From the NCBI GenBank assembly GCA_046351675.1, contig JAXLYB010000002.1, forward strand, positions 1 through 64,000: a DNA stretch of 64,000 nucleotides, in the 5' to 3' direction. The translations under genes and the position numbers were made by a program. The DNA comes from Myxococcaceae bacterium (lineage in GTDB: Bacteria > Myxococcota > Myxococcia > Myxococcales > Myxococcaceae). Positions 2,926 through 59,307 of the stretch are shown here, in pieces. Below the pieces are notes generated by a model. That model was not told the DNA's origin. It saw nothing but the letters and a program-made list of their open reading frames with translations, and ran no database searches. Within the stretch, counting starts at the first letter, position 1; the number at the start of each line of letters is the position of its first letter.

Positions 2926-3873
2926 ATGGACTGGAGCCGCGTCCCCGTCTTCCTGAAGGTCGTCGAGACCGAGAGCATCACCCGCGCCGCCGAAGCGCTG
3001 CGCCTGCCGAAGTCGTCGGTGAGCCGCACCGTCACCGCGCTCGAGCGCGACCTCGAGACCCAGCTGCTCACCCGCACCACCCGCCAGCTCAAGCTCACCG
3101 ACGCCGGCCGCCAGTTCTACGAGCGCGCCAAGGCCGCCCGCGCCGCCCTCGAGGAAGCGACCGCCGAGCTCGCGCACCAGAGCGACGACGCGCAGGGCGT
3201 GGTGCGGGTCACCGTCGCACCGAACGCCTGGCCCCTGAGCATCCTCTTCACGCGCTTCACGAAGGAACACCCGAAGGTGCACGTCGAGGTGCTCGCCACC
3301 AACCGCCACGTCAACCTCGTCGAAGAGGGCATCGACCTCGCCATTCGCGCCGGCTCGATGCCCGACAGCTCGCTCATCGCCCGCAAGATCGCGACCTCGG
3401 AGCTCGGGCTGTTCGCGTCACCCACCTACCTCGCGCGCAAGGGCACGCCGCGCCGCGTGGAGGACTTGAACGAGCACGAGGTGGTGATGTTCCGCGCGCG
3501 GCACGGCGCTGCGCAGCTGCGCCTGAGCGGCCCCGAGGGCGACGTGGTGGTCGCGGTGCAGGGACGCGTCAGCGCGGACGACCTGAGCTTCGTGCGCGCG
3601 TTCATCACCCTCGACGCGGGCATCGGGCTGTTGCCGCTCATCATGTCGGCCGGGCCGCGGACCGACGGGCGGCTGGTGCGCGTGTTGCCCGAGTGGAAGG
3701 TGAAGGGCTCGGGTCTGCACCTCGTGATGCCGGCTGCGCGGTATGTGCCGACGCGGGTCAGGTTGCTCGCTGATTTCATCGCCACGCACTTCGATGGGGC
3801 GCAGCTGTGCCAGGTGGCGAAGGAGCTGTCGGGGCCGTCTCAGGCGAAGAAGAAGGTGAAGCGGACAGCGTGA
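2926..3873 (+). CDS. LysR family transcriptional regulator
   Basis: N-terminal HTH (VFLKVVETESITRAAEALRLPKSSVSRTVTALERDLETQLLTRTTRQLKLTDAGRQFY) followed by a LysR substrate-binding domain. Divergent from its neighbour, the classic LysR arrangement. Confidence 0.85.
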   Translation: MDWSRVPVFLKVVETESITRAAEALRLPKSSVSRTVTALERDLETQLLTRTTRQLKLTDAGRQFYERAKAARAALEEATAELAHQSDDAQGVVRVTVAPNAWPLSILFTRFTKEHPKVHVEVLATNRHVNLVEEGIDLAIRAGSMPDSSLIARKIATSELGLFASPTYLARKGTPRRVEDLNEHEVVMFRARHGAAQLRLSGPEGDVVVAVQGRVSADDLSFVRAFITLDAGIGLLPLIMSAGPRTDGRLVRVLPEWKVKGSGLHLVMPAARYVPTRVRLLADFIATHFDGAQLCQVAKELSGPSQAKKKVKRTA

Positions 3874-3874
3874 C

Positions 3875-3911
3875 TCCCCTCACCCCAACCCTCTCCCCAC
3901 GGGGAGAGGGG
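3875..3911. repeat. REP-like palindromic element
   Basis: tcccctcaccccaaccctctccccacggggagaggg. Confidence 0.7.
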
Positions 3912-3919
3912 GCTATGAA

Positions 3920-5538: not shown

Positions 5539-5566
5539 CGACATGGTGCGTGCGTCGAGAAGGTCT

Positions 5567-5605
5567 TCCCCTCACCCCGACCCTCTCCCCCTCGGGGGAG
5601 AGGGA
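5567..5605. repeat. REP-like palindromic element
   Basis: cttcccctcaccccgaccctctccccctcgggggagaggg. Confidence 0.7.
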
Positions 5606-5701
5606 GACAGGCGCCACCGCGTTCTGAGGTTGAACTCACGAGGGCGGCGGGGCTCAGATGGCGCGGTGCGCGTCCCCGTCCCCCTCCGTCATGCTGCGCG
5701 G

Positions 5702-14303: not shown

Positions 14304-14876
14304 ATGCGCTTCGCTCTTCGGCACTACCTCGTCGCTGTCGCCATCGCCGCCTTCGCCACCAGCTGTGGCCCGCCGTGGAAGGTCATCAAGGCGTCTGGCC
14401 CGCCGTCGGCGCTCGAGGGGAAGACCGACGTGGGCGTGGCGTTCGACTACTCGGAGCTGGTCGTCGACGGGAAGCCGCTCTCGCAGTGGATGGAGCTGAA
14501 GACCAAGGAAGACCCCAAGTACCCGGAGACCTGGGCGAACCTGATGGGCAAGTTCGAGACGGGCGTGATGAGCACGTTCAGCTCGGGCTTCGCGGGCGCG
14601 CACCTCGCGACCCAGTCGCCGGGCGCGGCGCAGGTCATCGTGTCGGTGAAGACCTTCCAGATGGGCAAGTACATCGTGATTGGGCAGATCCCCACGGTGA
14701 TGAACGTGCACATCCAGGGCAAGGTCGGCGAGGCCGTGACCGATGAGATCATGATCACCCGCAGCTTCCCCGCGTCGGTGGTGCAGCCGTCGGTGTTCAA
14801 CCACGTGCCGCACGTCGGTGAGCAGGTCGGCAACGTCGCCGCGCAGTTCATGAACGCGGCGCAGCCCAAGAAGTAA
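14304..14876 (+). CDS. Hypothetical lipoprotein
   Basis: Lipobox (IAAFATSC). Divergent from the lipase-like gene. Confidence 0.55.
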   Translation: MRFALRHYLVAVAIAAFATSCGPPWKVIKASGPPSALEGKTDVGVAFDYSELVVDGKPLSQWMELKTKEDPKYPETWANLMGKFETGVMSTFSSGFAGAHLATQSPGAAQVIVSVKTFQMGKYIVIGQIPTVMNVHIQGKVGEAVTDEIMITRSFPASVVQPSVFNHVPHVGEQVGNVAAQFMNAAQPKK

Positions 14877-14882
14877 CAAGAC

Positions 14883-14920
14883 TCCCTCTCCTCTTCCGAG
14901 GAGAGGGTCGGGGTGAGGAG
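14883..14920. repeat. REP-like palindromic element
   Basis: ccctctcctcttccgaggagagggtcggggtgaggaga. Confidence 0.7.
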
Positions 14921-14948
14921 AGAACCCTCGCAGCGCAGTCGGTCGTCT

Positions 14949-14986
14949 TCCCCTCACCCCAACCCTCTCCCCCTCGGGGGAGAGGG
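14949..14986. repeat. REP-like palindromic element (inverted partner). It supplies the Shine-Dalgarno sequence for the histidine kinase at 15002.
   Basis: cccctcaccccaaccctctccccctcgggggagaggg. Confidence 0.7.
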
Positions 14987-15001
14987 AGCTCGTTCTCCGA
15001 G

Positions 15002-16603
15002 ATGACCGAGGGCCCTCCTCAACTCCGCCGCAGCGCCGCGCTCACCACGGTGCGCTCGGTGCTCGGCGCGTTGATCCTCGTCGCGCTCTTCGGTTCGATC
15101 GCCGCGGTCGTCAGCTACCGCGCAGACGTCACCGAGGCCCGCCGCCAGGTGCAGGCCCGGGTCGCGCAGCAGGGCCGGCTCTACGCTGACTCCCTCGCGC
15201 TCCACTTCGACGTGCTCGAGGCCGAGCTGCAGCGCCTGGCCGATCGCGGCTTCCAGGCACTCGCCGGCCATGACGAGACCGTGCTCACCACCATTCGCGA
15301 CGACCGCGCGCTCTTCACCGAGGGCGTGGCGTTGCTCGACCTGCACGGCGCGGTGGTGTGGTCCGAGCCCGCGCTCGCGTTCCCCGCCGACGTGCAGCTG
15401 CAGCCCTGGTTCCAGCACGTGCTGGGCCTCGAGAAGTCGACCGTCGACGAGCTGAAGCTGGCCGGCCAGGGCGAAGACAGCTCGCGGCTGGCGGTCGCGT
15501 TGCCCGTGCTCGAAGACGGCAAGCTCGCCGGGCTGCTGGTGGGCGTGGTCGGCTCGAACGACCGCCTCCTCTACGGCGTCGCCGGGCCCGGCGAGCAGCT
15601 GCTGCTCTTGAGCTCGCGCGGTGAGGTCATCTTGCCGGTGCAGGCGCCCGCGTGGTCGAGCAGCACCGAGTTCCAGGTGCGCTTCTCGGCGCTCAAGCAG
15701 CAGCACGACGAGCCGACGATGTGGGACCTCCAGGGCCAGGAGCTCATCGCCGAGGCCTTCGGCGTGAAGGAGACCTCGCTGCAGGTGCTCGCCGTCGAAG
15801 ACTCCGACGTCACCACCGCGCCGATCCGGCGGCGGCTCAACTTCCAGCTCTTCTTCCTGCTCGTGGTGCAGCTCGCCGCGCTCGGCGCGTTCGTGCTCTT
15901 CCTGCGGCGCACGTGGCGCGCCTTCCTCGAAGCCGAGGAGCGCTTCGCCCAGCGCGAGAAGATGGCCGCGCTCGGTGACGCCGCGTCGCTCATCGCGCAC
16001 GAGGTGAAGAACTCGCTCAACGGCTTGAGCGCGGCGACCAGCTTGCTCGAGCGCGGAGGAGATGCCGCGCTGGTCTCGCGCACCGTCACCGGCCAGGTCG
16101 AGCGGCTGGGCCACCTCGCCCGCTCGCTCTTGAGCTTCTCGCGGCCGACCGAGACGCGGCGCGTGAGCGTGCAGCTCGACGCGCTCACCCGCGACACCGT
16201 CAACGCGCTCCACGCGCTGCCCGAGTGGCCGGAGGCGAAGGTCGAGCTCGCGCTCGAGCCCGTGCAGGTGGACAGCGACCCGTTGTTGCTCACCACCGCC
16301 ATCGACAACCTCGTGCGCAACGCCATCGAGGCCGCGGTGCTCGCGAAGGACGTGGGCCAGGTCGCCACGCCGCAGGTGCGCGTCATCGTGAAGCGCGAGG
16401 GAGAGCGCGCCGTGGTGCAGGTCGAAGACAACGCGCGCGCGCCCGCCGAGCTGGAGCAGCGCCTCGGGCAGCCGTTCTTCACCACCAAGCCGCGCGGCAT
16501 CGGGCTCGGGCTGGCGATGACGCAGAAGGCGATGGAAGAGCTGGGCGGCACGCTGCGCTTCGAGCGGCTCGAGGGCGGCAGCCGGTTTCAGCTCACCCTG
16601 TAG
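15002..16603 (+). CDS. Sensor histidine kinase (membrane, HisKA + HATPase_c)
   Basis: Two TM segments flank a periplasmic domain. H-box: FAQREKMAALGDAASLIAHEVKNSLNGL. G-boxes: TTKPRGIGLGLAMTQKAMEELGGTL. A REP element just upstream supplies the Shine-Dalgarno sequence. Confidence 0.85.
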   Translation: MTEGPPQLRRSAALTTVRSVLGALILVALFGSIAAVVSYRADVTEARRQVQARVAQQGRLYADSLALHFDVLEAELQRLADRGFQALAGHDETVLTTIRDDRALFTEGVALLDLHGAVVWSEPALAFPADVQLQPWFQHVLGLEKSTVDELKLAGQGEDSSRLAVALPVLEDGKLAGLLVGVVGSNDRLLYGVAGPGEQLLLLSSRGEVILPVQAPAWSSSTEFQVRFSALKQQHDEPTMWDLQGQELIAEAFGVKETSLQVLAVEDSDVTTAPIRRRLNFQLFFLLVVQLAALGAFVLFLRRTWRAFLEAEERFAQREKMAALGDAASLIAHEVKNSLNGLSAATSLLERGGDAALVSRTVTGQVERLGHLARSLLSFSRPTETRRVSVQLDALTRDTVNALHALPEWPEAKVELALEPVQVDSDPLLLTTAIDNLVRNAIEAAVLAKDVGQVATPQVRVIVKREGERAVVQVEDNARAPAELEQRLGQPFFTTKPRGIGLGLAMTQKAMEELGGTLRFERLEGGSRFQLTL

Positions 16604-16613
16604 ACCCTCAGCT

Positions 16614-16652
16614 CCCTCTCCCCCTGAAGGGGAGAGGGTTGGGGTGAGGGGA
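16614..16652. repeat. REP-like palindromic element
   Basis: ccctctcccctgaaggggagagggttggggtgagggga. It lies immediately after the histidine kinase stop. Confidence 0.7.
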
Positions 16653-16658
16653 GACGCT

Positions 16659-17201
16659 TCAGAACGTCCCCGTCAGCGCAATCGCCGGCGCATTCCCCCT
16701 CATCATCATCGGCATCACCGTCACGCGCGGCTTCTCGGCATCGACCGTCGTGTTGCGCTGCAGCCACTGCGCGGGCTTCGACGCGCCGACGATCGCCGTC
16801 ACCACACCACCCACCTGCACCGCGGTCTCGCTGACCATCAACATCGTGAACCAGAACGCCGCGAAGCCGCGCCAGAACTGCTGGTCGCCCAGGAAGCTCG
16901 ACCATTCCGACGGCTGGCTCGCCCAGTTCCACGCGTTCACCATCGCGATGAGCGGACCCGCCACCGGCACCAGCAGCGTCAGGTCCTGCGTCGGCAGCGC
17001 CCAGAGCGCGGTGGTGGCGTAACCCGCGGCGAAGGCACCGAGGCCGGCGCCGATGACCGCCCAGCGCGGCTGCTCGACGAGGTGGTACCCCTCGGGGACG
17101 AAGCCGTCGCGCGAGACCTTGAGGCGCTCGGGCACGGGGGCTTCGACCATCGGCGGAGGGGTCTGCGCAACGGAGAGCGTGACGAGGAGCGAGAGGAGCA
17201 T
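16659..17201 (-). CDS. Hypothetical membrane/secreted protein
   Basis: Signal-like N-terminus (MLLSLLVTLSVAQ) and several hydrophobic helices. Start taken at the internal Met of ORF 16659..17363. Confidence 0.45.
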   Translation of the reverse strand: MLLSLLVTLSVAQTPPPMVEAPVPERLKVSRDGFVPEGYHLVEQPRWAVIGAGLGAFAAGYATTALWALPTQDLTLLVPVAGPLIAMVNAWNWASQPSEWSSFLGDQQFWRGFAAFWFTMLMVSETAVQVGGVVTAIVGASKPAQWLQRNTTVDAEKPRVTVMPMMMRGNAPAIALTGTF

Positions 17202-17368
17202 GCCGCGAAGGTGTGCAAGCCGGTCGCCTTCGGGGATTAGCGGGGTTGCGCGCCGAGACTGCGCAGTCGGCTGCACACCGTGTGCGTCCCGTTTCAGGGC
17301 TTTCGAGGGCTTTCCGAGGGCCTCGTTCGAGGCGGATCCACCTCGCGCCCGGCAGCAACCCACCGGCC

Positions 17369-18190
17369 ATGAAGCTGACCCTCTTCGCAGCGTGGGCGGG
17401 GCTGACGTTCGGCGCGCCCTTCGCGGTGCTGGCGCTGCACGGTGCGGGGCTGCCGCTCTCCGCCGGCGTGCTCGCGATGACCGCCCTCGCCACGCTCGCC
17501 GTCACCGTCGCCGAACACGTCGCGCCGTTCGAGCCGAAGTGGAGCGTGGACCACGGAGACGCCCGCGTCGACCGGCTCCACGCGCTCGGTTCGATGGCCG
17601 TCGTCGCGGCGCTCGTGCCCCTCGTCGCGCGCGTGCCGAGCCTCGGGTGGTGGCCGACGCGCTGGCCCTTCGTCGCGCAGCTCGCCGCCGCGCTGCTGCT
17701 CGCCGAGCTCGGCGCGTACTGGGCGCACCGGCTGATGCACACCACGCAGCTGCTCTGGCGCGTCCACCTCGTGCACCACAGCGCGCGGCGGCTCCATGCG
17801 CTCAACGCGTCCCGCAACCACCCGCTCGACACCGCGCTCGGGTTCCTCGCCGCCGCCGTGCCGTTGGTCGCGCTGGGAGCGCCGGCGGAGGTCCTCGCCG
17901 CGACCGGCGCGCTCGCCGCGGTGCACCTCCAGTTCCAGCACCTCAACGCCACGCTCGAGCTGGGGCCGCTCAACCTGCTCTTCGCTGGCCCGGAGCCGCA
18001 CCGCTGGCACCACTCGCGCGTCGAGGCCGAGGCGAACGGCAACTACGGCCACGTGCTCAGCCTGTGGGACGGCGTGTTCGGCACGCGCGTCGCGCCTCCG
18101 GGCCGGCCGCCGGTCGACGTGGGGGTCTTCTCTCCTCGTGACGAGGTGCCCGAGCAGCTCGGCGTGCAGCTCCTGGTGCCCTTCCGATGA
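17369..18190 (+). CDS. Fatty acid hydroxylase / sterol desaturase superfamily membrane enzyme
   Basis: Three His boxes (HRLMH, HLVHH, HRWHH) and multiple TM helices. Confidence 0.75.
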   Translation: MKLTLFAAWAGLTFGAPFAVLALHGAGLPLSAGVLAMTALATLAVTVAEHVAPFEPKWSVDHGDARVDRLHALGSMAVVAALVPLVARVPSLGWWPTRWPFVAQLAAALLLAELGAYWAHRLMHTTQLLWRVHLVHHSARRLHALNASRNHPLDTALGFLAAAVPLVALGAPAEVLAATGALAAVHLQFQHLNATLELGPLNLLFAGPEPHRWHHSRVEAEANGNYGHVLSLWDGVFGTRVAPPGRPPVDVGVFSPRDEVPEQLGVQLLVPFR

Positions 18191-18990
18191 AGCACGTCAC
18201 CTTCGACGATGGCCGGCAGATGTGGGCGCTCAACGCGGTCGACGCGGCGATGCTCCACCAGCAGATCTACCGCGCGCAGACGTACGCGCGGCCGGGGTGG
18301 ACGCTGCGGGAAGGCGCGTGCGTGTTCGACGTCGGCGCGAACATCGGCCTGTGCTCGCGCTGGCTCACCGAGCAGCACCGCGGCTTGCGGCTGTTTGCGT
18401 TCGAGCCCGCGCCGGAGACCTTCGCCGCGCTCGAGCGTAACGCGGCCGAGTTCACCGGCGCCGAGGTGACGCTCTTGCGCTGCGCGCTGGGCGAGCGACG
18501 CGGTGAGGCGATGCTCACCTTCGACCGCCTCGCGAGTTCGATGGCGTCGCTGCGGGAAGAGGGGCCGGCGGTCGATGCACGCGCGTGGCAGAGCGCCGTC
18601 GCGGCGGACCTGAAGCTGCCCCGCGTCGCGGTCGCGGCCGTCGAGCTCGCGCGCCGCGTGTTGCGCCGCCGTGTGCCGTGCGAGGTGCGCACGCTGTCTG
18701 ACGTCATCGCCGAGTACGGCGTCGAGCGCATCGACCTGCTCAAGCTCGACGTCGAGGGCGTGGAGCTGCAGGTGCTGCGCGGCGTGAGCGACGCCGACTG
18801 GGCGCGCATCGAGCAGGTGGTGGTGGAGACGGACGACGTGCCAGCAGTGTGCGCGTTGCTCGAGCGGCAGGGCTTCGCGGTCGACGTCACTCAAGACGCG
18901 GGAGCCACGTACCGGCTGCTCGGGCTCTACAACGTGTTCGCACGCCGCCCTCCTCTCCCTCTCCTCCCGAGGAGGAGAGGGTCGGGGTGA
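18187..18990 (+). CDS. FkbM family SAM-dependent methyltransferase
   Basis: Motif FDVGANIGLCS ... LLKLDVEGVELQVL is typical of the FkbM family. Its start overlaps the upstream stop (ATGA). The C-terminal ~14 aa are encoded by a REP element. Confidence 0.75.
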   Translation: MKHVTFDDGRQMWALNAVDAAMLHQQIYRAQTYARPGWTLREGACVFDVGANIGLCSRWLTEQHRGLRLFAFEPAPETFAALERNAAEFTGAEVTLLRCALGERRGEAMLTFDRLASSMASLREEGPAVDARAWQSAVAADLKLPRVAVAAVELARRVLRRRVPCEVRTLSDVIAEYGVERIDLLKLDVEGVELQVLRGVSDADWARIEQVVVETDDVPAVCALLERQGFAVDVTQDAGATYRLLGLYNVFARRPPLPLLPRRRGSG

Positions 18991-18995
18991 GGAGA
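18956..18995. repeat. REP-like palindromic element. It overlaps the 3' end of the FkbM gene.
   Basis: ccctctcctcccgaggaggagagggtcggggtgaggaga. Confidence 0.7.
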
Positions 18996-19006
18996 AACCT
19001 CGAGCT

Positions 19007-19045
19007 GCGGTGCGGATAACGCTGCCACAGCCCATGATCCGCACC
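19007..19045 (+). other. Conserved stem-loop motif, copy 1 (GGTGCGGA-N21-TCCGCACC)
   Basis: gcggtgcggataacgctgccacagcccatgatccgcacc, about 17 nt after the FkbM stop and between two REP elements. Near-identical to the element at 49932-49970 on the opposite strand. Confidence 0.5.
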
Positions 19046-19110
19046 GGCGAGGGGCTGCGTGGGTCGTGCAGTCACGAGACCCGTCACACCGTCGAACGGC
19101 ACTCGGCTTC

Positions 19111-19149
19111 TCTCCTCACCCCAACCCTCTCCTCCTCGGGAGGAGAGGG
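19111..19149. repeat. REP-like palindromic element (inverted partner). It contains the Shine-Dalgarno sequence and precedes the ATG of the sigma-54 activator.
   Basis: tctcctcaccccaaccctctcctcctcgggaggagaggg. Confidence 0.7.
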
Positions 19150-19151
19150 AG

Positions 19152-20522
<1,371 letters not shown>

Positions 20523-20597
20523 AAAGCCCTTTCACCGCGCACCGAAAAACTCTTTCACCACACCCCTGTCGCACCCAGTGGATCAGCGGGTCTGCGC

Positions 20598-26208: not shown

Positions 26209-29200
26209 ATGGGCAGTGAAGGGGAACAGCTGGGCCGCTACACCCTGGTGCGCAAGCTCGCGACCGGCGGCATGGCCGAGGTGTTTCTCGCGAAGGCCCA
26301 GGGACCCGGCGGCTTCGAGAAGTCGCTGGTCATCAAGCGCATCCTCCCGCACCTCGCGAAGAACCCCGAGTTCGTCTCGATGTTCCTCAACGAGGCGCGC
26401 ATCGCCGCGCAGTTCGCGCACCCGGCCGTGGTGCAGATCTTCGACTTCGGCGAGATGGCCGGCACCTACTTCCTCGCGATGGAGTTCGTCGACGGCCCCA
26501 ACCTCCGCACCATTCTGCGGGCCATTCCCGACCGCCGGCTGCCGCTCGCCGTCGGCGCGCGCGTCATCGAGGAAGCGTGCGAGGGCCTCGCGTACGTGCA
26601 CGAGTTCGCCGACCCCGCCGGCAAGCCGATGGGGCTCATCCACTTCGACGTGAGCACCGACAACCTGCTCATCGCGAAGAACGGCGCGGTGAAGGTGGTC
26701 GACTTCGGCGTCGCGGTGGCGGGCAACCAGAGCAACGCCACGCAGGGGCAGGTGAAGGGCAAGATTGCGTACATGCCTCCCGAGCAGATCATCGGGGAGG
26801 CCGACCTGCGCGCCGACGTCTACGCGCTGGGCGTCATTCTCTACGAGCTGGCCGCCGGCACGCGCCCGTACGAGACCAAGCCCGACCAGCAGCTGCTGGC
26901 CGACATCATCCAAACCGACCCGGTGCCGCTGCAGCAGCGCCGCCCCGACGTGCCCGGCGAGTACGCGGCCATCGTGCAGAAGGCGATGGCGAAGAACCTC
27001 CAGGCGCGGTTCCAGAACTGCCGCGAGCTCGCCGCCGCCCTCGAGGAGTTCGTCACCAACAGTGGCCAGCGCGTCGGCACCCGGCAGCTCTCGGCCCTCG
27101 CCGCGCACACCGAGGAAGTGCCGGCGGCGCCGAGCAAGCCCGCCACCTCGCCCACGCCCGCCACCGCCACGCCGTACAAGGCCGTCTCGCCCGCGCCCAT
27201 CTCTCCGCCGCGCGGCACGCCGGTCGCCGGCCCGTCGAGCGACCCCTTCGCCTCGTTCGGCGCGCCGCTGCCCCGCGCGTCGTCGGCCCCCGTTCCGCCG
27301 CCGCCCTCGAGCGCGCCCACCGCCCCCTCCGTCGCGCCGGTGACGCTCGAAGTCGGGCTGCCGAAGCAGAAGCAGTTCGACGCGAAGGCCAACGACCTCT
27401 TCGACCAGTTCTTCAGCGACCTGCAGGAAACCGACGGAGGGAAGGCCGCGCCCGCTCCCGTCGCCGCCCCGCCCGCGCCTGCCCCGGTCGCGCCGCCCGA
27501 GCCGGAGCCCGCGCCGGCCGAGGAAGAGACCGGCATGAAGGTGACCGTCGGCTCGACCGGCGCGCCGATGTCGATCGAGGCCTTCAACGCCGCGCGCGCG
27601 AAGTACTTCAGCAGCTCGCCCAGCAACCCCGGCACGCCGCGCCCGGGCCAGGGCATTCCCATGAGCGGCCTGACGCCCGGGCCGGGCAAGGGCCTCACCG
27701 GGCTGACGCCGTGGCCGTCGGCCGTCGCGGCGGCGCCCGCCCCGGGCCTCACGCCGGGCCCCGCCGCGAAGGGCATGTTCGCCGCGGAGCCGGCCCACCA
27801 GGTGCCGACGCACACCCCGGGCACCGCGTCGAAGGGCATGTTCGCCGCGCCGCCGCCCAGCCAGGTGCCGACGCACACCCCGGGCACCGCCGCGCGCGGC
27901 ATGTTCGCGGCGCCGCCGCCCAGCCAGGTGCCGACGCACACGCCCGGCACCGCGGCCCGCGGCATGTTCGGCCCGCCCGGCGCGCCCCCCGCGCCGCCGC
28001 AGCCCTCGCGCAGCGGCACCGCGCCCGCCTTCGTGCCGCCGCCCGCGGCGCCGACGCCGCAGAACGCGCCGCCCGAGGTGCGCGCGCAGGTGCTGATGGC
28101 CGAGGCCACGCACATGCGGCTCTACGAGGCCGGGGCGCCATTGGCCTCCCGCGCGGAGCTCGAGGCGGTGCGCACCGAGCTCGAGCGCGACGAGGGCGTG
28201 AACCTCTTCGCGCGCTTCCCGATGCACGCCGGGCGGCTGCTCAAGGTGGTCGACGAGGGCCCGGTGCTCGAGCGCGTGGTCGGCGCCATCGACGGCCTGC
28301 TGATGGCCGAGGCGTGGGGCGCGCTGGCGACGCTGCTCGAGCGGCTGCGCGCGTCGGCGAGCATCGACCCGCTGCACCAGCGCGTGGCCGACATCGCGCT
28401 CGCCCAGTTCGCCACTGCCGACCAGGCCCGCCGCATCGCCTACCGCCTGCGCGAGGCGCCGCCCACCGACGCCGAGGGCCTCGGGCGCCTGATTCCCTTC
28501 TTCGGCCACGCCTTCGCCGTGACGTGGCTCGAGCTCTTCGAGACGCTCGACCTGCCGGCCAGCCGCGACGCGGTCCTCCCCGGGCTCGCCGGCCTCGCCG
28601 CGCTGAACGCGCCGCCCTTCATCGAGCGGCTGCAGCCCAAGCGCCCGCGCCGCCTCACCGAGCTGACCTACTGCATCGAGAAGGGCCGCGTGCCCGAGCG
28701 CCAGCGCGTGGTGCGCGAGCTGATGGCCCGGCTCGACCCGCTCCGCAAACGCGAGGTGCTCGCCGGCCTCGCGCGCGCCGCCAGCGAAGACGCCTTCCGC
28801 TTCGTCAGCCTCGCGCTCAACGACGACGACGAGGCGACGCGCGTGCACGCCATGCAGTTGCTGGGCAAGCACTTCCCCGACCGGGTGCTGGCGACGCTGC
28901 AGCCCTTCGTCGAGGCGCAGACCGCGGCCACCCGGTCCGACGCCGAGCGCCGCGCCGCGTGGGCCGCCATCGGGCATTCGAGCTCGCCCGCCGCGTTCGA
29001 CCTGGTGTCCGCCGAGCTCTCGCTGCGCGCCGGGTTGCTCAACCGCGGCAAGGCCGACCTCCGCAAGGTCGAGGTGCTCGAGGCGCTCGCGGTGATGAAG
29101 ACCCCGCAGGCCGTCGAGCTGCTCAAGCGCACCGCGCAAGACGGCTCGCAGGGCCCGCTCGTCACCTCGGCGGCCGACGGCCACGTGCGCTCGGCGGCGC

Positions 29201-32243: not shown

Positions 32244-35243
32244 ATGCGCCTCCTCCGCCCCTCTCATGCCCTTGGTGTGTGCTTCCTCGCTTTCACCCTC
32301 TCGAGCTGCGCCTGCGACACCGTCGGCGTCGGCAATGACGAAGACGGCGGCGCGGGTGGTGGCGCGGCGACGGGCGGTGGCGCGACGGGCGGTGGCGCGA
32401 CGGGCGGCGGCGCGACGGGTGGCGGCTCAGCGACGGGTGGCGGCTCGGCGACGGGCGGCGGCTCGGCGACCGGTGGCGGCTCAGCGACGGGCGGCGGCTC
32501 GGCGACCGGAGGCGGTGACCCGATGGGTGGTGGCTCCGCGACAGGCGGTGGCTCCGCGACGGGTGGTGGCTCCGCGACGGGCGGTGGCTCCGCGACGGGC
32601 GGCGGCTCCGCGACGGGCGGTGGCTCCGCGACGGGCGGTGGCTCCGCGACGGGCGGTGGCTCCGCGACGGGCGGCGGCTCCGCGACGGGCGGTGGCTCCG
32701 CGACGGGCGGCGGCTCGGCGACCGGCGGCGGCGGCGCGTGCACTTCGGACCCTGGCTGCACCGCGGCCAACCAGCAGGCGTGTGACCCGAACGGTACCAA
32801 CGCGCACGGCACCTGCATCGACGTGGGCGGCGGCTGCTTGAAGGTGATGTCACTGATGGCGTGCGCCATCGGCCAGACGTGCTCGGGTGGAACCTGTGCG
32901 TGTCCCGCCGTCGCGGCGATGCCGGTCAGCGGCGGCGGCTGCATGATGCCCGGGGTGACGGCGTGCGAGACCGGCAACACGCAGATGCTGCTCACCTGCG
33001 CGCCGGTGGGGAGCTGCAACGTCTGGCAGCAGACCCGCGCCTGTCCGACGATGAGCCTGGTGTGCGGCACGACCGGCGGCCCCGCGGCGTGCCAGTGCCC
33101 GGCGAACACCGGCACCGCGTTCTACGCCGACCCCGTCAACGGCTCGCCCGGCGGCGCTTCGCCGTACCCCACCGGCGTCAACACGCCCGCGCAGTGCCGC
33201 TTCAAGACGCTGACCGCGGCGTTGACGGCGGCGTCGGCCGCGGCGGCGACGTCGAGCGCGTCGGCGGTGGCGACCGGCTTCACCGGTGCCCAGCCCATCA
33301 CCTTCTCGGCCGAGACCTTCCCGCTGGTGGTCAACCCGCGCGTGACGCTCACCACCAGTGACACCACGCCGACCCCGGCGAACTACGTCATCTCGTTCAA
33401 CGACACCACGCCCAACCGCAGCGCCATCGTGCTGCACGAGAACGGCACGGTGAACGGCGTGACGGTGCAGAACGCCAACGCGCCGGCGAGCTCGACCGGC
33501 ATCTCCACGGCGTGCCCGGCGGCGGGCGGCACGAGCTCCGTCACCAACACGGTGGTCATCGGACAGACTGCCGGCCCCAACCTCGCGGCGGGCCTCGCGC
33601 TGACGTCGAACTGCGGCGTGAGCGTCGACAACTCCACCTTCCGCGCGGCGACCAACGGCGTGCGGCTCGCGGCGACGGCCAACGCCACGCCGCTCACCCT
33701 CGCCAACAGCCTCGTCGAGCAGAGCAGCGGAGTCGGCGTGCTGGTGACGCGCGGCGCCGCGACGGTGACCAACACCCGCGTGCGCAACTGCGGGGGCCAC
33801 GGCATCAGCTTCCAGTCGGGCAACGCGGTGACCGGGAGTCTCTCGGTCACGGGCGGCCTCGTGGAAAGCAACCAGCAGAACGGCATCGACGTCACGGCCA
33901 TCAACGGCAACACGGTCAGCCTCAGCGGCACCGAGGTGCGCACCAACGGCGCGACGAGCGGCGGGCTGATGAACTTCAGCGGCATCAACGTGAGCGGCAA
34001 CCTCACGGTGCCCGTCGCCAACGTGAACGTGCACGAGAATGCGCTCCACGGGATGTCGGTGTCGGCGTTCGCTACCGTGAACGTCACCGGCACCTCGCAC
34101 TTCGACGGCAACGCGACGGCCTCGACGAACGGCGTCGGCATCGTGGTGAGCGCCACCGCGCTGCTCAACGTCGCGCCCGGCACCACGGTGAACGGCAACC
34201 AGGGCGTGGGGCTGCGCGTCGGAGGTGGAGCGCAAGCGACCGTGACTGGCATCACCATCGCCCGCAACGGTACGGGCTTCATGGCGGCCGCCGGGCGCGG
34301 CGCGCTCGAGGTCGAGAACGGCACCGCGACGGTGATCAGCAACGGCACCGGGCTGAGCGCCGTGCAGAACAACGCGTGGCACGGCATCCGCGTGTTCGGC
34401 GGCACGCTCACCCTGCAGGGCGGGTCGGGGCAGCCGGTGGACGTCTCGGCCAACGGGCTCAACGGCCTGCTCAGCGACGCGGCGACCGTCACCTCGACGT
34501 TCGCTCAGTTCCGCAACAACGGGACGCACGGCGTGGAGCTGAACAACCAGGGCCCGCTGGGCGTGGGCCAGCCGATGAGCTTCACCTCGAACACCTTCGC
34601 GACGAACGTGGGCGCTGGCCTGCACGTCAACGCGTCGGGTGGTCAGGCCGTGACGGGCGCCAACTCGCTCGTGGTGAGCGGCAACACCTTCAGCGACAAC
34701 CTCCACGGGCTCAACGTCGCCGCCAGCACCGGTGACGTGCGCGCCCTGTTCCAGAACAACACCGTGACCGGGTCGCGCGACATCGGCGTGATCGTCAACG
34801 GCACGGCGACCTCGGTGCACGCGTGGTCGGGCAACACCATCACCAAGAACCTCGCGACCACCCTGTTCTCGGGCCAGGGCGTCGGCGGCATGGTGTTCCG
34901 CGGAACGCCGCCAGCCAACTTCGCCTTCACCGGCAACCGCGTGTACAACAACGCGTTCAACCAGTTGGTCGCCGTCGGCGGCGGTGCTCCCGCGACGTGG
35001 CTCTTCAACGGCACCAGCGCCGCGTCGTGCAACCCGAACACCGCCAACAGCTTCACCTGCTACGGCACCACCCCGGGGTCGGTGGGCGTGATGGCGCTCG
35101 GCGCGAGCGTCACCGTGCAGGCGCATGGCAACGCCTGGCAGAACGCCGCGCCCGCCGCGGGCGTGGACTATCTCGGCGCTGCTGGCGGCACGGTCACCAC
35201 GCCGGTGGCGGTGTGCGCGGCGAGCACGCTCGTGTGCATGTGA
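32244..35243 (+). CDS. Large lipoprotein with GGSATG hexapeptide repeat linker, Cys-rich module and parallel beta-helix (pectate-lyase-like) repeats
   Basis: Lipobox (FTLSSC). About 21 copies of an 18-bp repeat. Repetitive N/G/T/V-rich ~22-residue periodicity typical of right-handed beta-helix. Antisense ORFs 32264..33115 and 32850..35126 are rejected. Confidence 0.75.
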   Translation: MRLLRPSHALGVCFLAFTLSSCACDTVGVGNDEDGGAGGGAATGGGATGGGATGGGATGGGSATGGGSATGGGSATGGGSATGGGSATGGGDPMGGGSATGGGSATGGGSATGGGSATGGGSATGGGSATGGGSATGGGSATGGGSATGGGSATGGGSATGGGGACTSDPGCTAANQQACDPNGTNAHGTCIDVGGGCLKVMSLMACAIGQTCSGGTCACPAVAAMPVSGGGCMMPGVTACETGNTQMLLTCAPVGSCNVWQQTRACPTMSLVCGTTGGPAACQCPANTGTAFYADPVNGSPGGASPYPTGVNTPAQCRFKTLTAALTAASAAAATSSASAVATGFTGAQPITFSAETFPLVVNPRVTLTTSDTTPTPANYVISFNDTTPNRSAIVLHENGTVNGVTVQNANAPASSTGISTACPAAGGTSSVTNTVVIGQTAGPNLAAGLALTSNCGVSVDNSTFRAATNGVRLAATANATPLTLANSLVEQSSGVGVLVTRGAATVTNTRVRNCGGHGISFQSGNAVTGSLSVTGGLVESNQQNGIDVTAINGNTVSLSGTEVRTNGATSGGLMNFSGINVSGNLTVPVANVNVHENALHGMSVSAFATVNVTGTSHFDGNATASTNGVGIVVSATALLNVAPGTTVNGNQGVGLRVGGGAQATVTGITIARNGTGFMAAAGRGALEVENGTATVISNGTGLSAVQNNAWHGIRVFGGTLTLQGGSGQPVDVSANGLNGLLSDAATVTSTFAQFRNNGTHGVELNNQGPLGVGQPMSFTSNTFATNVGAGLHVNASGGQAVTGANSLVVSGNTFSDNLHGLNVAASTGDVRALFQNNTVTGSRDIGVIVNGTATSVHAWSGNTITKNLATTLFSGQGVGGMVFRGTPPANFAFTGNRVYNNAFNQLVAVGGGAPATWLFNGTSAASCNPNTANSFTCYGTTPGSVGVMALGASVTVQAHGNAWQNAAPAAGVDYLGAAGGTVTTPVAVCAASTLVCM
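32355..32735 (+). repeat. 18-bp coding tandem repeat (ggctccgcgacgggcggt, GGSATG), about 21 copies
   Basis: Direct reading of the sequence. Near-perfect units with occasional ggctcg/ggctca variants. Confidence 0.85.
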
Positions 35244-35246
35244 GCC

Positions 35247-36326
35247 TCACTCTCCGTCGAAGCAGACCTCGACGGAGTTCACGATGAGCGAGGGCGACGA
35301 AGCCGACGGGCTGATGCGGAGCAGCACGCCGGCGTTGCCCGGGCGGAAGGCGCTCGTCGCGTCGGCCGGGTACCAGGCGTAGGGCGCGCTGTTCGACACG
35401 AAGTTGGACGGTGTGGCGCCCGAGCCGTCGAAGGTCATCCACGCGAACGCGCCGCTCGAGGTGGTGTTGAAGCTGCGCCCCTTGATGGAGAGCGTGACGG
35501 AGCGGAGCGTGGTCAGCCCCGCGGTGCTCAGCTCGACGTCGATGAAGTTGGTGCTGCCGAGCTCGAGCCCGCCCACGCCGAGGAAGGTGTCGGTGAAGAC
35601 CGGCGTGTAGCCAATGCTGCCGCGGCTGAAGGCGCCTGCTCTCCAGCGGGAATGATCAGGCAGGTTGTTCACGTCGTAGGTGACGTAGGCGGTCGAGTTG
35701 GGGCCGTTGCCCGACCAGTGGAAGCGCGCGACGTAGTGGCCGCTCACGCCGGTCGCGGTGCAGCCGCCGGGGTACGGAGAGCCCGCGTCGATGGGGCCGG
35801 CGTCGGGGGACATTCCCGCGTCCAGTGAGCCAGCGTCGGTCACCGAGCCAGCGTCATTCACTGAGCCGGCGTCGGTCACCGAGCCAGCGTCATTCACGGA
35901 GCCGGCGTCACTCACCGAGCCGGCGTCGGTCACCGAGCCAGCGTCACTCACCGAGCCAGCGTCACTCACCGAGCCGGCGTCACTCACGGAGCCAGCGTCA
36001 CTCACGGAGCCAGCGTCACTCACGGAGCCGGCGTCACTCACCGAGCCGGCGTCATTCACCGAGCCAGCGTCACTCACCGAGCCGGCGTCACTCACCGAGC
36101 CAGCGTCACTCACCGAGCCAGCGTCACTCACCGAGCCACCGTCGCCCGCCGGTCCTGCATCGAGGGACGAGCCGGCATCGTTCCCCGCGTCAGCCCCTCC
36201 GCCGCCACCGAGCCCGGCGTCGAGAAACGGGAAGCCGGTCCCCGCGTCGTCGTCTTCCGCCGGCAACCCGCACGCGGCCACGAGCCCGAACGACAAGAGA
36301 AGGAGCGCGCGTCGCATCGGCTGCAT
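35247..36326 (-). CDS. Lipoprotein with (DAGSVS)n hexapeptide repeat linker
   Basis: Signal/lipobox MQPMRRALLLLSFGLVAACG. About 18 copies of an 18-bp repeat. C-terminal globular domain. Convergent with the beta-helix lipoprotein gene, 4 bp apart. Confidence 0.7.
   Translation of the reverse strand: MQPMRRALLLLSFGLVAACGLPAEDDDAGTGFPFLDAGLGGGGGADAGNDAGSSLDAGPAGDGGSVSDAGSVSDAGSVSDAGSVSDAGSVNDAGSVSDAGSVSDAGSVSDAGSVSDAGSVSDAGSVSDAGSVTDAGSVSDAGSVNDAGSVTDAGSVNDAGSVTDAGSLDAGMSPDAGPIDAGSPYPGGCTATGVSGHYVARFHWSGNGPNSTAYVTYDVNNLPDHSRWRAGAFSRGSIGYTPVFTDTFLGVGGLELGSTNFIDVELSTAGLTTLRSVTLSIKGRSFNTTSSGAFAWMTFDGSGATPSNFVSNSAPYAWYPADATSAFRPGNAGVLLRISPSASSPSLIVNSVEVCFDGE
35822..36140 (-). repeat. 18-bp coding tandem repeat encoding DAGSV(S/T/N), about 18 copies
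   Basis: Plus-strand units gagccagcgtcactcacc / gagccggcgtcggtcacc. Confidence 0.85.
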
Positions 36327-38730: not shown

Positions 38731-38818
38731 GTCGCGACGACGCGACGACGACGCGACGACGACGACGACCGACGACGACGCGACGACCACGCGACGACCA
38801 CGCGACGACGACGACGGA
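38731..38818. repeat. (CGACGA)n-like GC-rich microsatellite
   Basis: gtcgcgacgacgcgacgacgacgcgacgacgacgacgaccgacgacgacgcgacgaccacgcgacgacc... It lies immediately after the kinase stop and before a REP pair. Confidence 0.75.
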
Positions 38819-38820
38819 CT

Positions 38821-38859
38821 CCCTCTCCTCCCGAGGAGGAGAGGGTTGGGGTGAGGAGA
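38821..38859. repeat. REP-like palindromic element
   Basis: ccctctcctcccgaggaggagagggttggggtgaggaga. Confidence 0.7.
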
Positions 38860-38928
38860 AAAACGTCGAAGCTCAGCTTCGTCGCTGCTCGAGCGGTGGT
38901 GCTGTCTCGGCTTCTTCTGAAGGGTTAC

Positions 38929-38964
38929 TCCTCACCCCGACCCTCTCCTCTGAAGAGGAGAGGG
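38929..38964. repeat. REP-like palindromic element (inverted partner)
   Basis: tcctcaccccgaccctctcctctgaagaggagaggg. Confidence 0.7.
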
Positions 38965-38974
38965 AGAGGCGTGA

Positions 38975-45126: not shown

Positions 45127-45137
45127 ACCGGAGAGCT

Positions 45138-45174
45138 CCCTCTCCTCTTCAGAGGAGAGGGTTGGGGTGAGGAG
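45138..45174. repeat. REP-like palindromic element
   Basis: ccctctcctcttcagaggagagggttggggtgaggag. Confidence 0.7.
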
Positions 45175-45201
45175 TAACCGAACTCTGCGCTCTGAGGCGT
45201 C

Positions 45202-45240
45202 TCTCCTCACCCCGACCCTCTCCTCCTCGGGAGGAGAGGG
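45202..45240. repeat. REP-like palindromic element (inverted partner)
   Basis: tctcctcaccccgaccctctcctcctcgggaggagaggg. Confidence 0.7.
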
Positions 45241-45258
45241 AGATGATTACATCGGATC

Positions 45259-45777
45259 ATGACCCCCGAAGCCGCGCAGCAAGAGCTCCGACGCAAGCTT
45301 CGCAACTACTTCCTCGCCGTGGTCGGCCTGCTGCTCTTCTCACTCTTCGGCGCGCCGTTGATCGGCGGCTTCATCGCCGCCGCCGCGCACCTCGACCCCA
45401 ACGTCGCCGGCCGCAACATCGGCATGTTCGCCGCCGCGAGCATGTTCTCGACGGTCGTCATCGCGTGGGTGCTCGTCTACCGCTGGTGGCGCTGCCCCGC
45501 GTGCAACGCCAACGTCTACTGGCTGGTGAGCATGAACATGTCGGCCTTCGCCGGCGCCTACAACCGCAAGGCCTGCCCCTCGTGCGGCATCCAGCTCTTC
45601 CCCGACAAGTCGCCGCGCCGCTTCATGGTGGTGCTCGCCATCATCGCCGCGGTCTTCGTCGTGCTCGGCGCGTTGATGGCCGCCGGCGCCGCGTCGCAGC
45701 GCTCGCGCCAGCAGCAGAATCAGCCCACCCCGACCGCGCCCGCGCCGAACAGCCCGCCCCCCGCGAACCCGGGCTAA
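45259..45777 (+). CDS. Membrane protein with CxxC...CxxC zinc ribbon
   Basis: Three TM helices. CPACN ... CPSCG. The overlapping Arg-rich frame (45243..45920) is rejected. Confidence 0.55.
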   Translation: MTPEAAQQELRRKLRNYFLAVVGLLLFSLFGAPLIGGFIAAAAHLDPNVAGRNIGMFAAASMFSTVVIAWVLVYRWWRCPACNANVYWLVSMNMSAFAGAYNRKACPSCGIQLFPDKSPRRFMVVLAIIAAVFVVLGALMAAGAASQRSRQQQNQPTPTAPAPNSPPPANPG

Positions 45778-49778: not shown

Positions 49779-49931
49779 GCGCTGCGTGCGTGTGACGTTT
49801 CCAGCGCGCGCCGCCGGAAGCGTCGAGGCGCGGCAGGCCTCAGGGGACGCGGGGGTGACGGGTCTCGGCCGTGCACCGCGCGAGCAGCCCCTCGACTGCG
49901 AGCGAAGTTCACGCACGGTGGGGCCGACGCG

Positions 49932-49970
49932 GGTGCGGAAAATGGGCTGTGGCAGCGTTATCCGCACCGC
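49932..49970 (-). other. Conserved stem-loop motif, copy 2 (reverse orientation)
   Basis: The plus strand reads ggtgcggaaaatgggctgtggcagcgttatccgcaccgc. This is the reverse complement of copy 1 with 36 of 39 positions identical. It lies about 180 nt downstream of minus-strand gene 50150..50887. Confidence 0.5.
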
Positions 49971-50149
49971 GGTCGAGGTCGCTGGGCAGAGAAGTTGTTC
50001 TCCCAGAGCATTTTCTCTACCCGGTGACCCGAACGACGACTGAGTGAACGAGTCACGGCCCGCAGCGAGGGGCACCTGCGCTGTTCGGCACGGCCTCAGG
50101 CCACCAGCACGCCCGCCACCCTCGAGGCTGATCAGCGTCCCGCTCGACC

Positions 50150-50887
50150 TCAGAAGCCCACCCCGAGCTGCGCCGAGCCACCCAGACGCACCGGCCCCAG
50201 CGCCGTCGCCTCCACCGCGAACGCCAGGAACGCGTGCTTCACCTGCACCCGCACCCCGACGCGCCCACCGAGCGAGAACGCCGTGCCCTTGTACGTCGCC
50301 GGCTGCCCATCGATGACCAACTGAGTCGTGAGGTGCTCGAAGTCACCGAGCACGTCGAGGAACGGCGTCACGTGCCGAAACGGAAACTCGTACCCGATGC
50401 CGGTGCGCAGGTCCCACATCGACACCGAGCGCACCAGCACGTCGTGGCTCAGCCCGTCTGACAACACGACCGACTGCGCCGAGCTCGACGGCCTGAAGTT
50501 GATGAACGGAAACCGCACGCCAGTCGTGACGCGAATGCCGTTGGTCACCAGCCGCGACTCCAGCGTCGCGCCCGCGAGCACCGACGAGCGAAACGGAGGC
50601 CCGAGGAACGGCTCGGTCACGCTGCCGGCCACCGCGGGGTTCGAGTCACTGGGCGTCAGCTCGAGGCCGCGCACGGTCTCGTCGGTCCACTGCCCGAGGT
50701 AGCCGAACGACAGCTCGCCGTGCGTGCGCTGCCACGTCTTCAGCGCGGGGTCGTCCTCGACCGGCGGCGCGGGCCGGCGCGCGAGACAGTCGGAGACACA
50801 GTCACTCACCTCGCCCGCCTCCTCGAAGAGCGAGGGCTGGGGCGCAGCGGCGACCGACAACGAGAGCGCGAGGAGGAGTGGGGTCAT
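50150..50887 (-). CDS. Secreted beta-rich (outer-membrane beta-barrel-like) protein
   Basis: Signal peptide MTPLLLALSLSVAAAP. Alternating beta pattern. C-terminal aromatic residue (F). Confidence 0.55.
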   Translation of the reverse strand: MTPLLLALSLSVAAAPQPSLFEEAGEVSDCVSDCLARRPAPPVEDDPALKTWQRTHGELSFGYLGQWTDETVRGLELTPSDSNPAVAGSVTEPFLGPPFRSSVLAGATLESRLVTNGIRVTTGVRFPFINFRPSSSAQSVVLSDGLSHDVLVRSVSMWDLRTGIGYEFPFRHVTPFLDVLGDFEHLTTQLVIDGQPATYKGTAFSLGGRVGVRVQVKHAFLAFAVEATALGPVRLGGSAQLGVGF

Positions 50888-59012: not shown

Positions 59013-59014
59013 GC

Positions 59015-59054
59015 CCCCTCTCCCCCCGAGGGGGAGAGGGTTGGGGTGAGGGGA
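59015..59054. repeat. REP-like palindromic element
   Basis: ccctctccccccgagggggagagggttggggtgagggga. It follows directly after the recF stop. Confidence 0.7.
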
Positions 59055-59132
59055 AGATCCAGCACGGCCGGCGGAGCGATGAATGCAGGTGGCAGTCGCT
59101 GATCAGCGTGGTCGCCAAGCCCGCTCCCTGCC

Positions 59133-59168
59133 CCCTCTCCCCCTGGGGAGAGGGTTGGGGTGAGGGGA
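59133..59168. repeat. REP-like palindromic element (same orientation as the one at 59015)
   Basis: ccctctccccctggggagagggttggggtgagggga. Confidence 0.7.
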
Positions 59169-59271
59169 AAGCCCAGCACGGCGCGCGCGGAGACCTCGGG
59201 ACCAACGATGTGCTGCTGACCGTTCGCCGCCGGCCTCACCTGTTACGCATGTTTCCGGCTGTACACGCGTC

Positions 59272-59307
59272 TCCCCTCACCCCGACCCTCTCCCCGCGGG
59301 GAGAGGG
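59272..59307. repeat. REP-like palindromic element (inverted). It overlaps the 3' end of gene 59277..60302.
   Basis: tcccctcaccccgaccctctccccgcggggagaggg. Confidence 0.7.

Follow-up and report, generated by a model that had tools for sequence, protein, structure and literature searches.

The BOX elements of Streptococcus pneumoniae are built from modules, boxA, boxB and boxC, which can be present or absent, and pairing between the outer modules can close a stem-loop; a genome holds roughly 100 copies or more. Their mobilisation by an insertion sequence acting in trans has been proposed. BOX elements are non-coding and intergenic, encode no transposase and are described as transcribed with the neighbouring genes (PMC3184786). 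The same account presents intergenic repeats as often lying at 3′ gene ends, where they are co-transcribed and alter mRNA stability, and as marking regions of rearrangement and plasticity (PMC3184786). Next to nothing is known of the non-coding repeats in myxobacterial genomes, which are very large and plastic. We analysed a 64,000-nt stretch of DNA from a Myxococcaceae bacterium (positions 1 to 64,000 of contig JAXLYB010000002.1, called the window here), in which the original prediction had identified a 39-bp stem-loop, present twice, as a discrete motif of 3′ untranslated regions (3′-UTRs). The 39-bp hairpin is instead one module of a 94–128-nt modular repeat. A literature search gave no description of this motif, nor of REP-type repeats in myxobacteria.

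The two copies share a 25-mer, GGTGCGGATAACGCTGCCACAGCCC, exactly, at 19009–19033 (plus strand) and 49944–49968 (minus strand); the number of matches expected from 100 dinucleotide shuffles is 0. The 39-mers match at all but two positions (37 of 39, where 36 had been counted originally) and have a 29-nt exact run, for which the chance expectation is 0; the two that differ are the last two loop bases (GA versus TT). As had been predicted, both copies contain an 8-bp stem, GGTGCGGA/TCCGCACC (19009–19016/19038–19045 and 49961–49968/49932–49939), which encloses a 21-nt loop. Nineteen nt of the loop are identical between the copies and an inner GCUG/CAGC mini-stem lies within it. Both regions are matched base for base by independent metagenome assemblies of the same organism (L022, L023 and L065), and the copies are therefore not assembly artefacts. 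At 70.7% GC an 8-bp stem is common by chance, occurring by our own estimate several tens of times per 64 kb; the significant feature is the conservation between the copies and not the stem. The chance frequency of such stems had been missed at the outset, as had the longer similarity and the position of copy 1 immediately upstream of a sigma-54 activator gene.

Gapped local and manual alignment indicated that the similarity runs about 45 nt past the hairpin after a 37-nt indel, giving 92 aligned nt in addition to that indel. Copy 1 (18997–19090, plus strand, 94 nt) consists of modules M1 and M3, with M2 deleted. It was located by local alignment to copy 2, by the module coordinates and by profile hidden Markov models (HMMs), which match M1 with E = 2e-14 and M2/M3 with E = 2e-9. 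M1 of copy 1 (18997–19045, plus strand) comprises the outer flank ACCTCGA and the hairpin with its 21-nt loop, and is identical to M1 of copy 2 at 45 of 49 positions. M3 of copy 1 (19048–19090, plus strand) reads CGAGGGGCTGC-N7-GTGCA-N5-GAGACCCGTCAC-ACC. Copy 2 (49852–49979, minus strand, 128 nt) was placed by alignment in a gap whose GC content at third codon positions (GC3) shows no coding signal. It contains all three modules on the minus strand: M1, the flank and hairpin, at 49932–49979; M2, a 37-nt spacer absent from copy 1, at 49895–49931; and M3 at 49852–49894. The two copies are inverted and 31 kb apart, and at each end of 18997–49979 M1 is the outer module and M3 the inner one. The M1 flank can pair with the start of M3, CCUCG(AC)/(GU)CGAGG, forming an outer helix that encloses the hairpin and, in copy 2, M2 as well.

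A single clear homologue was found outside the window, in an Archangium metagenome-assembled genome (MAG), at L060:3628–3694. It consists of M2 and M3 only and has no hairpin. It is identical to copy 2 at 50 of 60 positions, with an alignment score of 70 compared to 19 ± 2.3 (maximum 30) for shuffles, and it keeps the 3′ 24 nt of M2 (49895–49918 in the window, CCGTGCGTGAACTTCGCTCGCAGT). M3 is a 43-nt block with the consensus CGAGGGGCTGC-N7-GTGCA-N5-GAGACCCGTCAC-mCC over the copies; 28 of its 43 positions are invariant across all three, and the invariant blocks are held at fixed spacing. M3 of copy 2 is identical at 35 of 43 positions to L060:3628–3670 and at 33 of 43 to copy 1, a similar divergence (copy 1 and L060 share 30 of 43). 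M3 is thus as close across genera as within one genome, and the family therefore predates or spans the genus split. The combinations observed are M1+M3 (copy 1), M1+M2+M3 (copy 2) and M2+M3 (L060), so that the modules are independently present or absent in the manner of a BOX-like modular repeat.

Orthologous proteins of the window and its relatives are only 69–77% identical, thus neutral intergenic DNA should not align across the genera. The L060 copy is located at a non-orthologous site, between divergent genes, and the core is therefore old or mobile. This copy sits 91 nt upstream of an AbiEi-family gene (L060:2709–3536, 275 aa, PADLOC 4e-37), next to which the same strand carries a DUF4079 gene and not AbiEii, and 154 nt upstream of an operon running from a radical S-adenosylmethionine (rSAM) gene to a histidine kinase–activator pair. 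The sequences flanking the three copies are mutually unrelated. We note a non-homologous hairpin at L060:3764–3799, 69 nt outside the M2/M3 core, with an M1-like geometry (8-bp stem GGGTCTGA/TCAGACCC, 20-nt AT-rich loop).

The conserved loop had been taken as evidence of a sequence-specific function. This does not follow: M1 (45/49) and M3 (33/43) do not differ significantly in their conservation between the copies (Fisher p = 0.08), and since both copies are in one genome the loop identity is equally well explained by recency or gene conversion. The mismatches in M3 are mildly clustered (p = 0.02), with 5 of 7 positions mismatched in the N7 spacer and 4 of 5 in the N5 spacer. Part of the same prediction was that membership of a longer duplicated segment would point to segmental duplication; the similarity is indeed longer, but no segmental duplication of genes accompanies it.

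The repeat is non-coding. Open reading frames (ORFs) overlapping it have GC3 values of 0.59–0.74, compared to 0.91–0.95 for real genes, and long antisense ORFs have values of 0.74–0.76. The Rfam scan that had been suggested (Rfam 15) gave no match in the whole window at the gathering threshold. In E-value mode, both copies and the L060 region gave only sub-threshold matches to generic long-hairpin (microRNA precursor) models, which arise from the pair of REP-like palindromes beside copy 1. Fold z-scores against shuffles were −2.4, −1.0 and +1.4 on the strand assigned by the original prediction (plus for copy 1, minus for copy 2; the predicted strand below) and −1.1, −0.5 and +0.2 on the opposite strand; copy 2 has a better fold on the predicted strand than its shuffles do (z = −2.4, 2/200). 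An apparently better fold of the opposite strand proved to be an artefact of G-richness and disappeared once the shuffle z-scores were compared. No sigma-70-like promoter was found around the two copies.

Copy 1 starts 7 nt past the stop codon of an FkbM gene (18990), in the 161-nt gap that separates this gene from the ATG (19152) of a sigma-54 response regulator gene. The product of the latter (19152–20522) has Response_reg and Sigma54_activat domains (Pfam), and copy 1 ends 61 nt upstream of it. Synteny identifies about 2.55 kb of accessory DNA here (16604–19151), comprising in order a REP-like palindrome, a 180-aa ORF, FA_hydroxylase, FkbM, a second REP-like palindrome, copy 1 and a third REP-like palindrome. 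The whole is wedged between a histidine kinase gene (15002–16603) and the regulator gene (19152–20522). The palindromes to the left (18950–18995, plus strand) and right (19103–19151, minus strand) of copy 1, both from the repeat search, belong to a separate family; the first contains the FkbM stop codon and the second abuts the ATG at 19152. The kinase and regulator genes are contiguous in all six related loci that have both genes side by side (L056–L060 and L070). The kinase of the window is 69% identical to its L060 orthologue, and the regulator retains its downstream OEP-MFP-AcrB efflux operon (OEP/RND). We also observed, in the 75-nt gap between the activator gene and the efflux operon (20523–20597), two CTTTCACC direct repeats whose starts are separated by 31 nt; this gap contains no canonical TGGCAC-N5-TTGC site.

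The FA_hydroxylase–FkbM pair recurs in another neighbourhood, in L071, with 78.5% nucleotide identity. The repeat is not present by the FkbM cassette there, save for a marginal 12/13-nt trace at the equivalent position after FkbM, whose score is reached by 10–36 of 1000 shuffles and which has a G·U pair on the predicted strand. The idea that the repeat travels with the FkbM cassette was rejected, the L071 cassette being without it. Nor is the repeat at both ends of the cassette in the window, where copy 1 sits at one edge.

Copy 2 lies in a 371-nt non-coding gap (49779–50149) between convergent genes, starting 170 nt past the stop codon of a 245-aa ORF (50150–50887) and ending 73 nt before that of a 314-aa ORF. 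The 245-aa ORF, labelled a beta-barrel protein in the original prediction, has no Pfam, NCBIfam or PADLOC match. Just outside copy 2 is an unrelated 39-nt purine/pyrimidine-tract hairpin, GGGTAGAGAAAATGCTCTGGGAGAACAACTTCTCTGCCC (49984–50022, minus strand), in the position next to copy 2 that a REP holds next to copy 1. It is followed on the plus strand by a TTTTCTCT run and may represent a decayed REP or else terminate one or other of the convergent genes. Three loci with an orthologue of the 314-aa gene (L066–L068) lack copy 2, and the downstream neighbours differ there. Each window copy therefore does lie downstream of a co-oriented gene, FkbM for copy 1 and the 245-aa ORF for copy 2, as had been claimed. 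The proposed 3′-UTR reading stands to the extent that a co-transcribed 3′-end element is viable for these two copies; it does not extend to the L060 copy, which lies between divergent genes and has no hairpin.

We tentatively regard the element as an undescribed, low-copy, modular dispersed intergenic repeat of the Myxococcaceae/Archangium lineage that is co-transcribed at gene ends, an explanation we favour while placing it somewhat below an even chance. By analogy it fits the kind of element to which BOX, ERIC and REP-type repeats belong. This reading is supported by the presence and absence of modules, the non-orthologous placement and the association with non-syntenic junctions, and also by the fact that neither coding nor regulatory signatures are seen. 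All three copies are non-coding and lie beside genes whose arrangement is not common to the relatives examined: copy 1 at the cassette edge, copy 2 at a locus with differing downstream genes and the L060 copy beside the AbiEi-family gene. A precedent for dispersed repeats is provided by the separate REP-like family, which is common to these genera and dense in the source organism. Duplication or ectopic recombination may have spread the family, perhaps with mobilisation in trans, as with BOX, ERIC and REP-type repeats. Each copy would be co-transcribed with the preceding gene on the predicted strand, and M1, its stem-loop enclosed by the outer CCUCG(AC)/(GU)CGAGG helix, would form a structure at the transcript end that works in cis. 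We infer such a cis effect at the end of the upstream transcript, where M1 might serve as a 3′-end barrier or as a terminator lacking a U-tract and so insulate the upstream gene from its neighbour. M2 and M3 would be kept as primary sequence, probably through recognition by a protein such as a mobilising or nucleoid-type factor.

Several results weigh against this explanation. Profile HMMs of the modules gave only these three instances in 235 kb of related DNA, so the term ‘family’ rests on thin numbers. The fold z-scores of copy 1 and of the L060 copy are not significant on either strand. For the M2/M3 consensus the folding energy is about −9 kcal/mol and the covariation term is positive, whichever strand is taken; covariation, for which a check had been suggested, is absent from M2/M3 on either strand, and the core is conserved as sequence and not as structure. 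No terminator site with a T-run was found on either strand around the two window copies; they are not intrinsic terminators of that type, and a U-tract-less terminator is conceivable. A transcript-end role makes no sense for the L060 copy, between divergent genes and without a hairpin. Nothing points to a particular mode of spread: terminal inverted repeats and target-site duplications are lacking, and neither a transposase nor a recombinase was seen among the nearby ORFs scanned.

The searches for further copies covered related loci and public collections. The relatives of the activator locus were reached through the flanking proteins, the orthologous loci having 77–83% protein identity. The repeat is absent beside the activator orthologues at 81–83% identity (L056–L059 and L070; L069 is outside the relevant region). 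Scans of public DNA with the hairpin 18-mer, a search that had also been proposed, gave 21 genome and 32 metagenome matches, all of them due to chance (flank identity about 25%, no M3) and none a true copy in collections that do not contain the source contigs. The viral, phage and plasmid collections contained no true match, two viral 18-mer matches being chance (7–11 of 42 flank positions matched), and a phage or plasmid origin is not supported by these searches.

Compared with described repeats, the element resembles BOX in being non-coding and intergenic and in encoding no transposase. It differs in having no sequence similarity to BOX, in its three instances in 235 kb and in its phylum and GC content, and mobilisation in trans is here a proposal only. 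The ERIC/IRU elements and other low-copy repeats of enterobacteria, described as imperfectly palindromic intergenic repeats of about 100–130 nt that are often found at 3′ gene ends (PMC3184786), are similar in size and setting. Features of ERIC-type elements that the present repeat does not share are terminal inverted repeats, target duplications and a flanking TA. The left end and the reverse-complemented right end are identical at only 8 of 25 positions in both copies, and the flanks (TGAGGAGAAA|GTCGAACGGC at copy 1, CTGCCCAGCG|CGCGTCCCCT at copy 2) contain no direct repeat that would indicate a target-site duplication. The terminal inverted repeats of a miniature inverted-repeat transposable element are thus lacking. 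Such elements are short (under about 400 bp), have no transposase and fold into a long hairpin; the repeat has 94–128 nt and is non-coding, and a better-than-shuffle fold is seen in copy 2 only. No transposase or recombinase was found among the interior and flanking ORFs scanned (Pfam). The REP/BIME elements associated with RAYT are likewise GC-rich, hairpin-forming and extragenic, and copy 1 lies between two REP-like palindromes in alternating orientation; the repeat is unrelated in sequence to the host REP-like consensus. REPs are reported to be usually present at more than 100 per genome (PMC2817692). A role for copy 1 as a BIME linker, that is as the filling of a REP pair, was rejected since five other REP pairs enclose unrelated spacers. 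The pneumococcal SPRITE elements, as described, are likewise inferred to act at transcript ends and are found preferentially where neighbouring genes converge, as at copy 2 (PMC3184786). They have a motif like a Rho-independent terminator, unlike the repeat here, which has no T-run after the stem.

Other readings of the same data were considered. M2/M3, perhaps with the M1 inverted repeat, could be a predicted protein-binding cis-regulatory DNA (an operator, an enhancer or an unusual promoter) at several loci of one regulon, which a conserved regulator would recognise in double-stranded form; we judge this unlikely. The core is kept as primary sequence at fixed spacing (28 of 43 positions invariant) with no covariation, and it precedes genes at copy 1 (61 nt upstream of the activator gene) and in L060 (91 and 154 nt upstream). 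Copy 2, by contrast, lies between convergent gene ends with no gene to regulate either way, the window and L060 have the repeat in opposite orientations relative to the activator gene, and four closer orthologous activator loci are without the repeat. M3 has no dyad symmetry by eye and, as stated, no sigma-70-like promoter was seen. Pentamers of the form sTGC/GCAs with 11–12-nt spacings are mildly enriched in the window copies (p about 0.02), an enrichment that is post hoc and absent in L060. Transcription from the opposite strand offers a different reading, quite unlikely in our view, in which the copies would be paralogous trans-acting small RNAs (sRNAs) with M3 as promoter (GG-N10-GC, TGCA at −12) and M1 as the 5′ stem-loop. 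The model for it is the sigma-54-dependent sRNA adjacent to an NtrC-type activator gene, of which Qrr1 beside luxO is an example. Pxr of the Cystobacterineae, the same group as the source, is another: it is described as non-coding and located beside the NtrC-like sigma-54 regulator gene pxrR, with paralogous copies in some genera (PMC5684412, PMC5568312). It is placed downstream of pxrR (nla19), in a 413-bp gap before an NADH dehydrogenase gene, and has its own sigma-54 promoter and three stem-loops (PMC5568312). Consistent with such an sRNA, copy 1 adjoins the sigma-54 activator gene and is divergent from it, copy 2 is alone in its 371-nt gap with the hairpin and TTTTCTCT run following on the opposite strand, and one U·G pair extends the outer helix on that strand. 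The GG-N10-GC frame with TGCA (GGGTCT-N-TGCA) occurs on the opposite strand in all three copies with the required spacing. Its match to TGGCAC-N5-TTGCW is only 6–7 of 11, the median of the 1627 GG-N10-GC frames in the window, of which 541 score 6, and a sigma-54 promoter on this strand was rejected on the score. The folding advantage of the opposite strand is compositional, with no covariation; the copy 1 transcript would run antisense into FkbM with no terminator, the L060 copy has no hairpin, and the repeat is missing at the activator orthologues with 81–83% protein identity. In contrast to Pxr, the repeat is upstream of the activator gene, whose downstream gap is 75 nt and followed by the OEP/RND operon. 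It is on the wrong side of that gene to be a positional orthologue of Pxr, a proposal rejected by comparison of position. The opposite-strand loop also reads ATGGGCTGTGGCAGCGTTATCCGCACC (MGCGSVIRT) in both copies, and the ATG and first 9–10 codons are identical. We find the start of a small protein hardly credible, as the 33-aa ORF has a GC3 of 0.59 against 0.91–0.95 in real genes, the peptides diverge completely after residue 10, there is no Shine–Dalgarno sequence by eye and no family match, and the conservation continues well upstream of the ATG.

The remaining readings turn on how the copies arose. They could be a functionless remnant of one ectopic duplication or gene-conversion tract, with the L060 likeness due to horizontal transfer and not to selection; we consider this unlikely. 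There are three instances only, all beside accessory or rearranged genes, the 29-nt identity in M1 is that expected of a recent conversion tract, and M1 is not significantly better conserved than M3 (p = 0.08). M3, on the other hand, is as diverged within the window as between genera and its mismatches are mildly clustered, which argues that the copies are not recent. The 28 invariant positions have been kept despite that age, and with unrelated flanks at all three copies no larger transferred block is visible. It is improbable, but conceivable, that the repeat is a junction site which marks, and perhaps mediates, events in which accessory gene cassettes are inserted into Myxococcaceae/Archangiaceae chromosomes or shuffled within them. 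As a recombination hot-spot it would then resemble integron attC or plasmid pdif sites in role though not in sequence, no recombinase lying close by, and the M1 hairpin and M2/M3 core would be recognised by a putative host factor. Quite improbable is a recombination substrate in the stricter sense, the inverted copies ending a 31-kb mobile or invertible segment or serving as recombinase sites for cassettes (again attC- or pdif-like in role). The inverted arrangement, M1 outward and M3 inward, and the position of copy 1 exactly at the cassette junction would suit it. The interior nonetheless has the content of ordinary chromosome, with genes for RND efflux, Ser/Thr kinases, DUF4175 and ECF sigma; the ORFs scanned in or next to the segment include no integrase, transposase or invertase, and there are no target-site duplications; the L071 cassette lacks the repeat and that of the window does not carry it at both ends. 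A 31-kb element with terminal inverted repeats and an invertible segment were both rejected, there being no recombinase, ordinary genes and no target duplications. The sequence GGTGCGGATAA is one position off what we take to be the XerC arm of E. coli dif, a likeness given no weight. The window has no reversal of GC skew and no XerD-like arm follows the dif-resembling left arm by eye, and a terminus or dif/Xer site was rejected. Presumed likenesses to lacO, to the DnaA box (TTATCCGCA against TTATCCACA, as we take it to be) and to attC core sites were also given no weight.

The repeat is real, well delimited and apparently undescribed. Its novelty is modest and it brings no surprise, as the instances number three, structural covariation is absent and no mechanism is linked to it; we present it as a clean candidate and not as a demonstrated mechanism. 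If this repeat and the denser REP-like family are both dispersed and located at cassette junctions, they would be useful as markers of accessory-gene insertion, and both would also be candidates for shaping transcript boundaries where terminators are poorly defined. Should the core turn out to bind a regulator or to serve as an sRNA promoter, a small regulon common to two genera would thereby be defined.

The REP-like palindromic family has the consensus CCCTCTCC-N3-6-GGAGAGGGTyGGGGTGAGGrGA and 15–16 copies in the 64 kb. These are located at 2226–2271, 2350–2390, 3867–3915, 5559–5607, 14876–14921, 14941–14989, 16607–16652, 18950–18995, 19103–19151, 38814–38859, 38919–38967, 45130–45175, 45194–45242, 59009–59054, 59123–59168 and 59264–59312. 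Thirteen of the 16 are no more than 21 nt from a gene end, and there are six convergent pairs with unrelated 26–115-nt spacers. Related MAGs (L056, L059, L069 and L070) contain the family too, at low density. In L069, the closest relative of L060, the 245-nt kinase–regulator gap (L069:1977–2221) holds a REP copy together with a direct repeat of about 57 nt (gtcgcgcagt..ggcgtcacg.gaagccgccgctcgc...). Some copies seem to have been taken over as parts of genes at their ends: FkbM has its stop codon and its C-terminal tail within a REP, and the C-terminus in L071 differs. The REPs in opposite orientation (19103–19154 and 45194–45245) end at the ATGs at 19152 and 45243 and supply a Shine–Dalgarno-like GGAGAGGGAG run. 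Upstream of the ORF that begins at 45243, the REP pair (45165–45260) is polymorphic in length between assemblies, with 96 nt in the window and 109 nt in assembly L063.

Further repeats in the window include 18-nt tandem arrays of 9–22 copies, encoding hexapeptide repeats, at 32353–32732, 35827–36143 and 56707–56861, two of the three being mutually reverse-complementary in sequence. A 63-nt array (27750–27977) is located inside a 1408-aa Ser/Thr kinase ORF. The region 52000–53500, within an 821-aa ORF (51844–54309), is hypervariable at strain level and contains 206 of the approximately 245 differences from L063; the rest of the overlap between the window and that assembly is about 99.9% identical.

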